Shown here in pieces: positions 41,377-54,950 of a stretch of 64,000 nucleotides of DNA. The notes under the pieces were generated by a model. The model had not been told where the DNA came from. It saw only the letters and a program-made list of their open reading frames with translations, and searched no databases. The first letter of the stretch is position 1. Every line of letters begins with the position of its first letter. This stretch comes from Escherichia coli. GTDB taxonomy: Bacteria > Pseudomonadota > Gammaproteobacteria > Enterobacterales > Enterobacteriaceae. The DNA lies in the NCBI RefSeq assembly GCF_011045215.1, contig NZ_CP049202.1. The stretch is one strand, 5' to 3'. A program made the translations under genes and the position numbers.

Positions 41377-42096
41377 TCACGCTGCCTCCCGGAGTTTGTT
41401 CGGCACCATCCACCGCTCCATCTCACGGACAGCGTGACCGGCCTCTCTTGCTGCAAGACTGGCTTCCGCAATAACCTGCCAGAACGGCATATCCTGCCAC
41501 TGCCAGCGTTCCATTCCGGACAGTGACGGAAAACGCTCGCCCCACTGCCAGAACAGGGTTTCCAGGTCATGCTCTGCCACCCGGTCACTCCAGCGTGCAT
41601 GCCAGCTTCCGACTGTTTCCGGCGAATGGAATGCCAGTTCGATTTCAGCCTGAGCGACCAGCTCCTGGTACGCACGGGCTTTCTGCTCTGCCTCCCGTGC
41701 CTGCTGGCGGCTGTACTTCTGCATGACCAGCGCGGATTTATGGCGACTGCGCTCCCTGACACGAAACCGCACCGACGGAAACAACCGCTCTGCTGCATCA
41801 CCGGGAAGGGGAAGGAGGCAGACCTCGCCCTGTATTTCAATCAGCACATCGATGACATACAGCCACTGAAGACGGTTGCCGTGCAGTTCTTCTGCGGTCA
41901 GGGACGGCATGAAAAATCGCAGGTCAGACAGCGATATCCTGCGGCTTCCGTTCAGACAGCGGAAAAACGCCCCCGCATACGGATATTCCGCCAGCGTGTT
42001 ACCCTGATGGCGGCGTTTTTCTGTCTCCGCCACCGCCCGCCATGCGGCCTGTTGCTCTGTGCTGAGCGGAACCAGTGCCTGTGAACGTACGCTCAT
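41377..42096 (-). CDS. psiA: PsiA (239 aa)
   Basis: 239 aa directly downstream of psiB; sequence as remembered for F PsiA. Confidence 0.9.
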
Positions 42097-42530
42097 ACCT
42101 GACCTCCTTCCGCCATCAGGATATGGATGATGTCGTTAACGCTGTACCCTTGCGTATCCAGTGACGCCGCCAGTGCCAGTGAATGGCTGACGGCTTCCGG
42201 TGCAAACCGCCGCTGTACCTGAACCACCGCAAACGGCTCACCACCGGCATTCACCAGAACCAGCACCCAGACCTGAGAGACATCGCCCGGTGAACATAAC
42301 GCCAGGTGAAAACGTTCGTGGGCAGGCGTGAAACGGACCTGGACGGGGAAAAAGCCGCCAAACTCGCTGCCGTACTCGCCGTTCATCGTCCAGTTATCCG
42401 GCGCATCCAGCTCCCGCATCACGGCGTGAGTCAGCTCACGGCGTTCATCACTTCCGGCAGCCCGGATATCTTCATATTCCTGTGCGTTCATGGTCTGTAA
42501 TACATTCAGGGTCAGTTCAGTTTTCATCAC
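42093..42530 (-). CDS. psiB: PsiB, plasmid SOS inhibition protein (145 aa)
   Basis: [33 protein letters not shown]... matches PsiB. Confidence 0.9.
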
Positions 42531-51231: not shown

Positions 51232-51583
51232 GGGAATTCTCCTCTCACATGCGGCCTCCATCAGGCCGTGCCGCACCTGTAACCGGGCGACCGCATACGA
51301 ATGCAGGTGCGGCCCCGAAGCCGCAGCGCGTGGAGGAGGAACGACGAAACGTGACCGGGTGAGGAGGCCTGCGACAGCGACACACTTGCATCGGATGCAG
51401 CCCGGTTAACGTGCCGGCACGGCCTGGGTAACCAGGTATTTTGTCCACAGAACCGTGCACAAAATGCTGTGGATAAGCTGGACACAACAGTCCACAGCAG
51501 GCATACAGCCACACTCTCAGAGAATTGAGCGTTTTTTAGTCACAATAATGACATTTGACTGTGTGTGGATTCAGTTATTAGAA

Positions 51584-51603
51584 TACTGTATATACATACA
51601 GCA
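51584..51603. promoter_or_regulatory. LexA (SOS) box upstream of impC
   Basis: TACTGTATATACATACAGCA fits the CTGT-N8-ACAG LexA consensus; about 20 nt upstream of the impC start. Confidence 0.65.
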
Positions 51604-51624
51604 AAAGAAAAGGGAGATGAGAAC

Positions 51625-51873
51625 ATGATCCGCATTGAAATTCTTTTCGACCACCAGAGCACAAAAAACCTCAAATCAGGCACACTTCAGGCGCTACAGA
51701 ATGAAATCGAACAACGTCTGAAACCACACTACCCGGAAATCTGGCTACGTATAGACCAGGGCAGCGCCCCGTCTGTATCTGTCACTGGAGCCCGCAACGA
51801 CAAGGATAAAGAACGTATCCAGTCTCTGCTGGAAGAAATCTGGCAGGACGACAGCTGGCTGCCCGCAGCATGA
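51625..51873 (+). CDS. impC: ImpC-like small protein (82 aa), first gene of an impCAB-type operon
   Basis: 82-aa ORF with GGGAG RBS preceding a umuD-like gene, as in plasmid impCAB operons. Confidence 0.65.
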   Translation: MIRIEILFDHQSTKNLKSGTLQALQNEIEQRLKPHYPEIWLRIDQGSAPSVSVTGARNDKDKERIQSLLEEIWQDDSWLPAA

Positions 51874-52307
51874 GTACCGTTTATCACCGTCCGGCTGACC
51901 CTTCAGGCGATGACAGTTACGTGCGACCGTTGTTTGCCGATCGTTGCCAGGCCGGTTTTCCTTCGCCTGCCACTGATTATGCTGAGCAGGAACTGGATCT
52001 GAACAGCTATTGCATCAGCAGACCTGCAGCCACCTTCTTTCTGCGCGCCAGCGGTGAATCGATGAACCAGTCTGGCGTGCAGAATGGTGATCTGCTGGTA
52101 GTGGACAGGGCCGAAAAACCACAACACGGGGACATCGTTATCGCTGAGATCGACGGTGAGTTCACCGTCAAACGACTGCTGTTGCGCCCACGCCCGGCAC
52201 TGGAGCCGGTTTCAGACAGCCCGGAGTTCCGCACACTGTATCCGGAAAACATCTGTATTTTTGGTATTGTCACTCACGTGATACACAGGACGCGGGAGTT
52301 ACGCTGA
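51870..52307 (+). CDS. impA: ImpA/UmuD/MucA-like LexA-type S24 peptidase (145 aa)
   Basis: Ser/Lys dyad context (SGESM...KRLLL), 145 aa; start overlaps the impC stop. Confidence 0.85.
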   Translation: MSTVYHRPADPSGDDSYVRPLFADRCQAGFPSPATDYAEQELDLNSYCISRPAATFFLRASGESMNQSGVQNGDLLVVDRAEKPQHGDIVIAEIDGEFTVKRLLLRPRPALEPVSDSPEFRTLYPENICIFGIVTHVIHRTRELR

Positions 52308-53577
52308 TGTTTGCACTGGCTGATATCAACAGTTTCTACGCCTCATGTGAAAAAGTTTTCCGCCCGAACCTTCGCAACGAACCGGTCATCGTACTCAGCA
52401 ATAACGATGGCTGTGTGATCGCGCGCAGCCCGGAGGCAAAAGCCCTTGGCATCAGAATGGGGCAGCTCTGGTTTCAGGTGAGACAAATGCGCCTGGAGAA
52501 GAAAATACATGTATTTTCCAGCAATTATGCGCTGTACCACAGCATGAGCCAACGGGTTATGGCTGTTCTGGAGTCGCTTTCTCCCGCAGTTGAGCCCTAC
52601 TCAATTGATGAAATGTTCATTGATTTGCGGGGGATAAATCATTGCATCTCTCCGGAGGTTTTTGGTCATCAGCTCAGGGAACAGGTAAAGAGCTGGACAG
52701 GACTCACCATGGGGGTGGGCATTGCGCCTACAAAAACGCTGGCTAAAAGTGCACAGTGGGCAACAAAGCAATGGCCACAGTTTTCCGGTGTGGTCGCGCT
52801 GACGGCAGAAAACCGTAATCGGAGCTTGAAGCTACTGGGGCTGCAGCCAGTTGGTGAGGTCTGGGGAGTAGGACGCAAACTGACGGAAAAGCTGAATGCG
52901 CTGGGTATTAACACAGCACTGCAACTGGCGCAGGCTAACACGGCATTCATCCGGAAAAACTTCAGCGTCATTCTTGAGCGTACGGTACGCGAACTCAACG
53001 GCGAGTCCAGCATATCCCTGGAAGAAGCACCACCGGCAAAACAGCAGATTGTCTGTAGTCGCAGTTTTGGTGAACGAATCACAGACAAAGATGCCATGCA
53101 CCAGGCTGTTGTTCAGTATGCAGAGCGGGCCGCAGAGAAACTACGTGGGGAGCGTCAGTATTGTCGGCAGGTGACGACATTTGTACGGACATCCCCCTTT
53201 GCAGTAAAAGAACCCTGTTACAGCAATGCCGCTGTGGAAAAGCTTTCATTGCCACACAGGACAGCCGGGACATTATTGCCGCCGCATGCAGAGCCTTAAA
53301 CCATGTCTGGCGTGAAGGGTACCGCTATATGAAGGCAGGAGTCATGCTGGCTGATTTCACACCATCGGGTATAGCGCAGCCGGGATTATTTGATGAAATC
53401 CAGCCCCGTAAAAACAGTGAAAAGTTAATGAAAACACTCGATGAACTGAACCAGTCGGGAAAAGGGAAAGTGTGGTTTGCGGGGCGAGGAACCGCCCCTG
53501 AATGGCAAATGAAACGGGAAATGCTATCGCCTTCGTATACAACACAATGGACTGAGATCCCCATTGCTTCATTCTGA
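52307..53577 (+). pseudogene. impB: ImpB/UmuC/MucB-like Y-family polymerase, disrupted by an apparent 1-nt frameshift near 53253..53257
   Basis: N-terminal part (MFALADINSFYASCEKVFRP...) is in one frame to 53299; the conserved C-terminal part (...TQDSRDIIAAA...YTTQWTEIP) is in another frame to 53577; together about 423 codons. Confidence 0.8.
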
Positions 53578-53581
53578 TATA

Positions 53582-54010
53582 TCAGAATAATTTTTTCATT
53601 TTAAGACGCACATCATTCATTGCCTCCTGCACCGAATCAGTAGCAGAAGGAGGCATTTTTTCAACAGATTGCGAAGCACCGAGTTCAGTCAACACAGCTC
53701 TGATATCGGCCTGAGAAGGCTTCCATCCAGTCGTCTGACTGAGTAAGGTTACAACCTGATCTGCTGAAAACTCCTCGCTCAAAATGGCTGTCAGCAATAC
53801 AGGCAGGCGAGGATCAAGTTGGTGTAACGCCATTCCAGAAATAAATGCATTCCGGAACAGCTCACCACGCTCAGAACGCGGAACGGACTCTATCGCTTCC
53901 AAAGTTTGAAAGTCTGCAGCTTTTTCCGGATGCAGATAAAGTGTGTATTTTTTCCTTTTCCGTTCATCGTCCACAATATTACTCCTCTTTGAAAGCCGCG
54001 ATAGCTTCAA
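53582..54010 (-). CDS. parR: ParR/StbB-like centromere-binding protein (start codon reads as TTG in the track; true start uncertain)
   Basis: Small protein downstream of the parM-like gene with similarity to R1 ParR (...LDSIPRSERGELFRNAFISGMALHQ...). Confidence 0.65.
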   Translation of the reverse strand: MKLSRLSKRSNIVDDERKRKKYTLYLHPEKAADFQTLEAIESVPRSERGELFRNAFISGMALHQLDPRLPVLLTAILSEEFSADQVVTLLSQTTGWKPSQADIRAVLTELGASQSVEKMPPSATDSVQEAMNDVRLKMKKLF

Positions 54011-54950
54011 CCAGTGCTGTCTGTGGCGACTCCATCATCACTACTTTTTGCCCAAGATGGTGCCATGCCGTTTTTATCGAATCATAGATCAACGGGGCCC
54101 CACCACCGACAACATAAACACGATTCACATGATGGAAATCACCGAGCTCATTGACTACTTGCTCCCCCAAACTGGCAATAGCCCCCTCAATGGTATTAAG
54201 GACCAGATCAGTTTTTGTTTCGTCATTTATAACCTGCCGAACAAAGTCCGGGTCATTACGACGTTTAATCAATTCATCTGCAACGAGGAAACTGGTATCA
54301 CTGGATGCCATGCGCAATGCACTCATTGCAGCTTTCGTAACTGAAGACACACCAATGCCAGAATTACCATGAATGGCACTTACAGAGTCAAATTGACCAA
54401 CGATAACACCAACATCAAGCGTAGTGCCGCCAATATCAACTACCAGCGATTTTTCGAACTGACCAACTTTATCCACGACCAGACGAGAAAACACAGCTGG
54501 CAATGATTCAGGCATCACATCAACGTGTTCAATGGTGAAAACATCGCCTTTATTAAGACGAATCGGCCTCATTAAATTCTCAATTTTACGCTGAATGTTG
54601 AGTTCATTTTTTTGACACTCTTTCGTATAGAACTCACTGATAGGCAAAGTCACAGTCAATGATACAGGCTGAGGCGCTAATCCACTATTCAGTAAAGCGT
54701 GATGCACAGCTAACAGGTTAACATCCGTATATTGATACTCAATATGAGTCGTAAGAATAGATTGGTTGCTAACTTCATCATACGTGTATTTTTTACCATC
54801 CAGTTCATAGTTAAATGTCTGGCGAATTCCTAACCCGTCAACCTTCCATCCATGACGAAATGAGTTTTGCGACAACGACTTACAGATTTTTCCATTATCA
54901 TTCCATGCCAACTTGATTGTTGTTGAACCATCATCGCAGTATACGTTCAT
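53979..54950 (-). CDS. parM: ParM/StbA actin-like segregation ATPase (323 aa)
   Basis: Actin-fold phosphate motifs (DDGSTTIKL ... VDIGGTTLD ... VVGGGA) and R1 ParM-like sequence. Confidence 0.85.
   Translation of the reverse strand: MNVYCDDGSTTIKLAWNDNGKICKSLSQNSFRHGWKVDGLGIRQTFNYELDGKKYTYDEVSNQSILTTHIEYQYTDVNLLAVHHALLNSGLAPQPVSLTVTLPISEFYTKECQKNELNIQRKIENLMRPIRLNKGDVFTIEHVDVMPESLPAVFSRLVVDKVGQFEKSLVVDIGGTTLDVGVIVGQFDSVSAIHGNSGIGVSSVTKAAMSALRMASSDTSFLVADELIKRRNDPDFVRQVINDETKTDLVLNTIEGAIASLGEQVVNELGDFHHVNRVYVVGGGAPLIYDSIKTAWHHLGQKVVMMESPQTALVEAIAAFKEE

Follow-up and report, generated by a model that had tools for sequence, protein, structure and literature searches.

A plasmid-borne impCAB operon of Escherichia coli with a polymerase pseudogene, the product of a one-base deletion common to hundreds of related plasmids

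Does the umuDC-like locus at positions 51584–53577 (+ strand) of this E. coli plasmid sequence still encode a mutagenesis system with a working polymerase? The question was raised by an original prediction, made from the sequence of a stretch of 64,000 nucleotides (64 kb, referred to here as the window), which described an impC-like gene, a UmuD-like S24 peptidase gene and a UmuC-like polymerase gene with a broken reading frame. Pfam and NCBIfam profile matches agree with these gene identities, and the LexA box, impC, impA and impB were all located within the interval, which begins with the LexA box (first base 51584) and ends with the impB stop codon (last base 53577), with the three genes co-directional on the + strand (ORF list for window positions 51300–54200). 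The locus is a plasmid-borne impCAB operon, umuDC-like and LexA-controlled, and it is the plasmid equivalent of dinI together with umuDC (DNA polymerase V). It belongs to the impCAB operons by descent, and what it lacks as a functional operon is the complete polymerase reading frame. The features of the locus are as follows:

51555–51584, + strand: sigma-70-like promoter of the imp operon (consensus scan, 10/12 matches).
51557–51576, − strand: weak second site resembling a LexA box, AACTGAATCCACACACAGTC, which overlaps the −35 hexamer and the spacer (direct read).
51584–51603, + strand: strong LexA box, TACTGTATATACATACAGCA, with two mismatches to TACTG(TA)5CAGTA.
51625–51873, + strand: impC, open, encoding a DinI-like protein of 82 aa (Pfam DinI, E = 1.5e-18, residues 19–79).
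51870–52307, + strand: impA, open, encoding a predicted UmuD-like S24 self-cleaving peptidase of 145 aa (Peptidase_S24, E = 1.3e-23).
52307–53299, + strand: 5′ part of the impB pseudogene, frame A, 330 aa (Pfam IMS, IMS_HHH and the first half of IMS_C).
53252–53253, + strand: inactivating 1-bp deletion, CCC to CC (alignments with intact alleles).
53252–53577, + strand: 3′ part of the impB pseudogene in the −1 frame, beginning TQDSRDII (IMS_C 64–107; DUF4113, E = 6.9e-21).

We refer to ImpC as DinI-like rather than as DinI because, while matching the Pfam DinI family as E. coli DinI does, it scores 41.8 bits against the NCBIfam DinI equivalog cutoff of 111. ImpA scores 140.8 bits with the NCBIfam profile for the Pol V autoproteolytic subunit (cutoff 110); the ATG of its gene overlaps the impC stop (ATGA), and its translation includes a putative Ala–Gly cleavage site in CQAGFPSPA along with what would be the serine (in GESM) and the lysine (in TVKRL) of such a peptidase. 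NCBIfam places ImpA in the UmuD subfamily and ImpB in the UmuC subfamily, alongside the products of the chromosomal umuDC of E. coli and the plasmid genes mucAB and samAB. These operons and dinI are LexA-regulated like the imp operon; in contrast to umuDC and mucAB, a DinI-like gene comes first in the operon here, and unlike in umuDC, mucAB and samAB, the polymerase subunit is a pseudogene.

The same impC–impA–impB order, with the same overlapping start and stop codons, is found in the impCAB operons of IncI1 plasmids (TP110, ColIb-P9/R64-type, pTF2 and pS13) and of the Shigella flexneri virulence plasmid, and in these, as in the window, a DUF1281/yfaB gene precedes the operon and partition genes of the parM/stbB type follow it. 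Nucleotide identity between the window and intact impCAB alleles is approximately 98–99%. On IncI1 TP110 and the Shigella virulence plasmid, the operon reportedly raises UV survival and induced mutagenesis (Lodwick et al. 1990; Runyen-Janecky et al. 1999; both as cited in PMC12211044). The plasmid represented by the window differs from these in its replicon, being an F-type conjugative plasmid (MOBF/MPF_F, IncFIB/FII-like) and not IncI1, the type in which impCAB was first described. Its closest relative is pWY517IncF (NZ_CP076260; MOBF, MPF_F, IncFIB/FII), in which impB is 100% identical over 1271 bases and which differs from the window between 51500 and 53650 at two impC sites, R10H and a synonymous change at L41; R10H is found in the window alone among the aligned loci. 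In pWY517IncF the tra operon is followed by traM, the oriT region, the leading region (with an SLT gene, hok, psiA, psiB, a ParB-like gene, ssb, an antirestriction gene and a methylase), DUF1281, impCAB on the opposite strand and stbB/parM. The imp operon thus adjoins the leading region of an F-type plasmid, and the window has open reading frames for both psiA and psiB.

The operon is preceded by a putative promoter with a −35 hexamer TTGACT (51555–51560), an 18-nt spacer and a −10 hexamer TAGAAT (51579–51584), and the strong LexA box begins at the final base of the −10 hexamer and covers the likely start region. This is the placement relative to LexA boxes that would be expected of an SOS-repressed promoter, and it may function as one. 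The near-consensus box that had been predicted ahead of impC was confirmed, with TACTGTATATACATACAGCA being the sole LexA match in the 64 kb at three or fewer mismatches and none of 100 shuffles giving any such match. It should be noted that only the full 20-mer is significant; the bare CTGT-N8-ACAG core was rejected as evidence because it is not above chance (two found versus 0.95 expected). Both LexA boxes are identical to those of pTF2 impCAB, where the same strong 20-mer lies at −21 with a heterology index of 1.60 and the second site, the same as AACTGAATCCACACACAGTC, has a heterology index of 13.49 (PMC12211044, Table 1), and in an SOS-hyperinduced strain carrying pTF2, ImpC was up 21-fold and ImpA up 9-fold (PMC12211044). 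We infer LexA control here because the box is identical to this experimentally supported site, and as the LexA-repressed promoter looks intact, DNA damage should still induce transcription of the operon.

The ATG of impB overlaps the impA stop codon, and the gene then reads normally as far as the lesion. A one-base change of frame had been predicted near 53253–53257, with alignment to intact impB proposed as a check, and when the gene was aligned with the intact impB alleles of the Shigella STLE3 plasmid and pS13, a single-base deletion was mapped within a few bases of this, in a CCC run at 53252–53253. Here TGCCCACA has become TGCCACA with the loss of one C, at codon 316 of the 424-codon intact ImpB; the window impB also differs from intact alleles by D21N, P54L, I173S and R191K. 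Frame A has 314 native residues, after which 16 out-of-frame residues lead to a stop, while frame B is open from 53161 to 53577 and encodes what remains of the little finger, a QPGLF stretch resembling a clamp motif and the C-terminal domain DUF4113. The NCBIfam UmuC profile of 422 positions is accordingly split over two frames, with frame A covering positions 1–317 and frame B 310–421, whereas an intact relative covers 1–421 in a single piece, and a complete UmuC-subfamily reading frame is absent from the window. A sequence search of the PDB yielded no UmuC structure, with Pol IV proteins as the nearest solved homologues, and for this reason the domain boundaries were taken from a Pol IV alignment and Pfam. 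The QPGLF stretch, at residues 358–362, is presumably the counterpart of the UmuC β-clamp-binding pentapeptide, judging by its position and form.

With one C of the CCC run gone, translation of impB would run 16 codons out of frame and then stop, and the truncated ImpB would be without the end of the little finger, the putative β-clamp motif and the UmuC-specific C-terminal domain. A protein missing these parts is predicted to be inactive, and the plasmid would therefore not encode a working Pol V-type translesion polymerase, while the DinI-like ImpC and UmuD-like ImpA could still be made. We also considered whether the 3′ fragment might be expressed separately as part of a split polymerase and rejected this, as frame B starts with only a TTG (53161) and the next Met is well past the junction; no ribosome-binding site for the fragment was evident in the sequence.

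The deletion allele is widespread. A 61-mer spanning the deletion and identical to the window is present in 275 of the 3465 PLSDB records holding this segment, and in 301 of the 2845 E. coli replicons holding it among complete RefSeq genomes, so that the allele accounts for approximately 8–10% of plasmids with the impB segment (the operon as a whole was matched by megablast in 3810 PLSDB records). These plasmids have IncFIA, FIB, FIC or FII replicons and come from humans, cattle, sheep, goats, pigs and wastewater, with Nigeria, Mali, USA, Japan, China, Korea and Switzerland as source countries. None of the closest PLSDB relatives (99.5–99.9% identity) has an annotated polymerase protein, and the RefSeq/PGAP label for impB in near-identical records is “umuC, frameshifted”; among the IncF plasmids labelled in this way, pWY517IncF, JE86-ST05_p1 and the 2014C-4135 plasmid have the same allele and deletion position, and some PGAP-annotated relatives carry extra lesions which the window does not have. 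SNPs at 53164, 53246 and 53526 are linked to the deletion and co-segregate with it (13 aligned sequences). Single-base indels are the commonest assembly error, but that the frameshift is an error of sequencing or assembly hiding an intact impB is hardly credible at all and can be excluded because the same deletion-bearing allele recurs in these hundreds of records from many laboratories and platforms, in a C run just three long, and is linked with particular SNPs and with a clade that shows neutral substitutions and further lesions. With hundreds of independent assemblies agreeing, restoration of a single frame by resequencing, which the original prediction had named as a result that would refute it, is effectively excluded.

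The decay of the allele can be followed in an operon alignment of 12 deletion-allele loci (the window, L004–L009 and L014–L018) and six intact loci (L010–L013, L002 and L003). The same 1-bp deletion was found in 12/12 loci of the deletion class, and five further independent impB-disabling events have occurred among the 11 relatives of the window. The additional lesions in the deletion class are:

L005: further 5-bp deletion in impB.
L007: further 1-bp deletion in impB.
L016: Q180* nonsense codon in impB.
L015 and L017: IS21 truncates the 3′ part of impB.
L018: impC and impA missing, together with the 5′ part of impB.
L009: internal stop in impA.

Private changes in impB number 26 nonsynonymous to 6 synonymous in the deletion clade and 3 to 9 in the intact alleles (Fisher p = 0.0009), counts which come from 18 loci picked partly by similarity rank, which describe allele patterns rather than tree-inferred events, and which are possibly inflated by recombination or assembly errors in some records. 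The difference was retained without the singletons of the two most divergent loci (16:3 in the deletion clade, p = 0.002). The neutral expectation for impB is 77% nonsynonymous, which the deletion clade fits (26/32, p = 0.68) and from which the intact alleles depart (3/12, p = 0.0002). Past the junction, both indels and nonsynonymous changes have built up, and for the subclade of the window the four substitutions listed above are accompanied by zero synonymous changes in impB. This pattern suggests that impB in the deletion clade evolves neutrally and that the intact alleles are under purifying selection. The impCAB operon is also broadly conserved in I-complex plasmids, with dN/dS indicating negative selection on the genes analysed (PMC10286972). 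The claim of the original prediction that the catalytic subunit is inactive is thus supported by a deletion fixed in a widespread lineage, the PGAP pseudogene call, neutral evolution and secondary lesions.

The companion claim that impC and impA remain intact holds for the window in the sense that both reading frames are open, but for impA it does not extend to selection in the lineage. Private changes in impA were 11 nonsynonymous to 2 synonymous in the deletion clade versus 0 to 3 in the intact alleles (Fisher p = 0.018), and constraint on the gene appears relaxed; the subclade of the window carries A68S, and impA is open in 10/12 deletion-clade loci, with the other two being the internal stop in L009 and the loss in L018. 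For impC the corresponding counts were 6:4 and 0:2 (Fisher not significant), and the gene is open in 11/12 deletion-clade loci; it is frameshifted in L013 even though impB is intact there. In this small sample, impC, impA and impB have similar numbers of disruptive events per kilobase. The simplest interpretation is that the entire operon is apparently in decay in the deletion lineage and that the window represents an early stage.

Could the frameshift nevertheless be bypassed, by programmed −1 frameshifting or transcriptional slippage, to give full-length ImpB at a perhaps reduced and regulated level? The −1 frame is open from 53161, and a −1 slip anywhere in the 139-nt zone at 53161–53299 would restore the frame. 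This zone includes weak tetramers where both frames are open (C_CCC at 53194, A_AAA at 53206 and A_AAG at 53239, the last counting in favour of slippage), and since overexpression of impCAB is toxic (PMC10286972), a reduced level might be beneficial. However, scans of impB found neither an in-frame X_XXY_YYZ slippery heptamer nor any homopolymer of at least six bases, the clade has a neutral ratio of nonsynonymous to synonymous changes on either side of the deletion, and members of the clade have extra frameshifts, a nonsense codon or IS truncation of the 3′ part, which would be intolerable if the product mattered. We therefore consider programmed frameshifting to be very unlikely, given the lack of a recoding signal, the neutral evolution and the downstream lesions, although rare spontaneous −1 slippage at A_AAG 53239 may produce trace amounts of full-length ImpB with four residues altered.

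A different proposal would accept the loss of the polymerase and have the LexA-controlled impC (and perhaps impA) kept for its own use, for example as a DinI-like modulator of the RecA filament that tempers the SOS response on plasmid entry alongside psiB. The open reading frames of impC and impA in most of the clade, the window included, are in keeping with this, as are the conservation of the promoter and both LexA boxes across the deletion clade in the operon alignment, the location of the operon next to a leading region with ssb, psiB, psiA and an antirestriction gene, and an impC ratio (6:4) that is not clearly neutral. Set against these are the relaxed constraint on impA, the similar rates of disruption per kilobase, which fit decay of the whole operon with the short genes hit less often, and the frameshifted impC of L013 beside an intact impB. 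In pTF2, moreover, deleting impC, impA or impB caused no significant change in conjugation frequency (PMC12211044). On this evidence we regard a retained module as rather unlikely, and from their being open in the window it should not be assumed that impA, and possibly impC, are functional.

The alternative that fares best concerns not whether impB was lost but why, and proposes that its loss was positively selected as relief from toxicity or mutational load, in place of neutral decay of a gene redundant with chromosomal umuDC. Induced impCAB expression results in a severe growth defect in E. coli (PMC10286972), and impB has been inactivated in several independent ways, which include the frameshift and partial matches to impB in roughly 1300 PLSDB records that have no more of the gene (mostly a fragment at query positions 750–1217, with others ending at 1022 or 670); the frequency reached by the deletion allele among segment-bearing plasmids also points in this direction. 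Against this, the majority of full-length copies are intact and subject to purifying selection (see also PMC10286972), the allele may simply owe its spread to a successful plasmid backbone on which it hitch-hiked, and the present data do not separate selection from drift. Selected loss is thus possible, though on balance we doubt it. The paired suggestion that impC (perhaps with impA) is kept as an SOS modulator damping RecA and complementing PsiB, or else that the loss of impB was itself selected, is speculative and quite improbable.

Our preferred reading is one of simple decay. The impB of the window is a genuine pseudogene that was inactivated by a one-base deletion common to hundreds of related plasmids, and the operon is very probably an early-stage relic with a dead polymerase, the allele having been fixed in an IncF lineage with later drift. 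The deletion would be an old mutation in what is now a globally spread IncF plasmid lineage, and since then impB, and apparently impA too, would have drifted without selection. We note that impCAB is an already known system and that the frameshifted pseudogene is already annotated in public records; a full-text literature search found papers on impCAB function, regulation and toxicity and no paper describing the IncF impB frameshift allele.

The impB pseudogene leaves the understanding of Pol V-type systems unchanged, and its immediate value is for annotation, as an impCAB or umuDC match on an IncF plasmid is not to be taken as a working mutagenesis system. Dead impB alleles also bear on claims that plasmid error-prone polymerases speed the evolution of resistance. 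Finally, purifying selection on intact impB versus neutral decay after the frameshift provides a tidy example of gene loss in a mobile element.

In an intact-impB plasmid (NZ_OY754359.1) a 1-bp deletion in impC, aligned to window position 51663, leaves a shortened DinI-like ORF of 168 nt, and as this lies beside intact impA and impB genes, the comparison of sequences shows that impC can be lost independently of the polymerase. A lesion in impA was found in a plasmid carrying the impB deletion (NZ_CP051689.1), where a 3-bp deletion is accompanied by a dense cluster of substitutions over ~20 bases (aligned to window 51912–51932) which creates an internal stop; the pattern resembles the outcome of a patch replacement or a small rearrangement, not of point mutations that arose one by one.

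Some 1300 PLSDB records have only partial impB matches, the commonest being a fragment at query positions 750–1217 (approximately window 53056–53523) which made up most of the sampled ranking, and no gene is annotated beneath it in the PLSDB gene table, which is itself incomplete. The remnant in NZ_LR130556.1 has kept the CCC run that is reduced to CC in the window, yet carries T at 53246, and it is therefore a related allele that was inactivated separately. A few hundred bases downstream of this remnant are an IS1 element and iutA.

Variation was also noted in the imp promoter, as another plasmid with the impB deletion (NZ_CP065616.1) has a G to T change at aligned window position 51581 that converts the −10 hexamer from TAGAAT to the consensus TATAAT. 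The intergenic spacer that separates impC from the DUF1281 gene also contains a pair of DnaA boxes ~110–140 bp upstream of the promoter (51441–51476), identified by sequence match:

51441–51449, plus strand, DnaA box with one mismatch, TTGTCCACA
51468–51476, minus strand, perfect DnaA box, TTATCCACA

Matches with no more than one mismatch are somewhat enriched across the whole window (25 found vs 14.8 expected).

Finally, in pWY517IncF (NZ_CP076260.1), the nearest relative of the window plasmid, psiA and traP are frameshifted and a DUF932 gene has an internal stop, whereas psiA (239 aa) and psiB (145 aa) are both open in the window (41377–42530). The decay of leading-region genes thus differs among near-identical plasmids.
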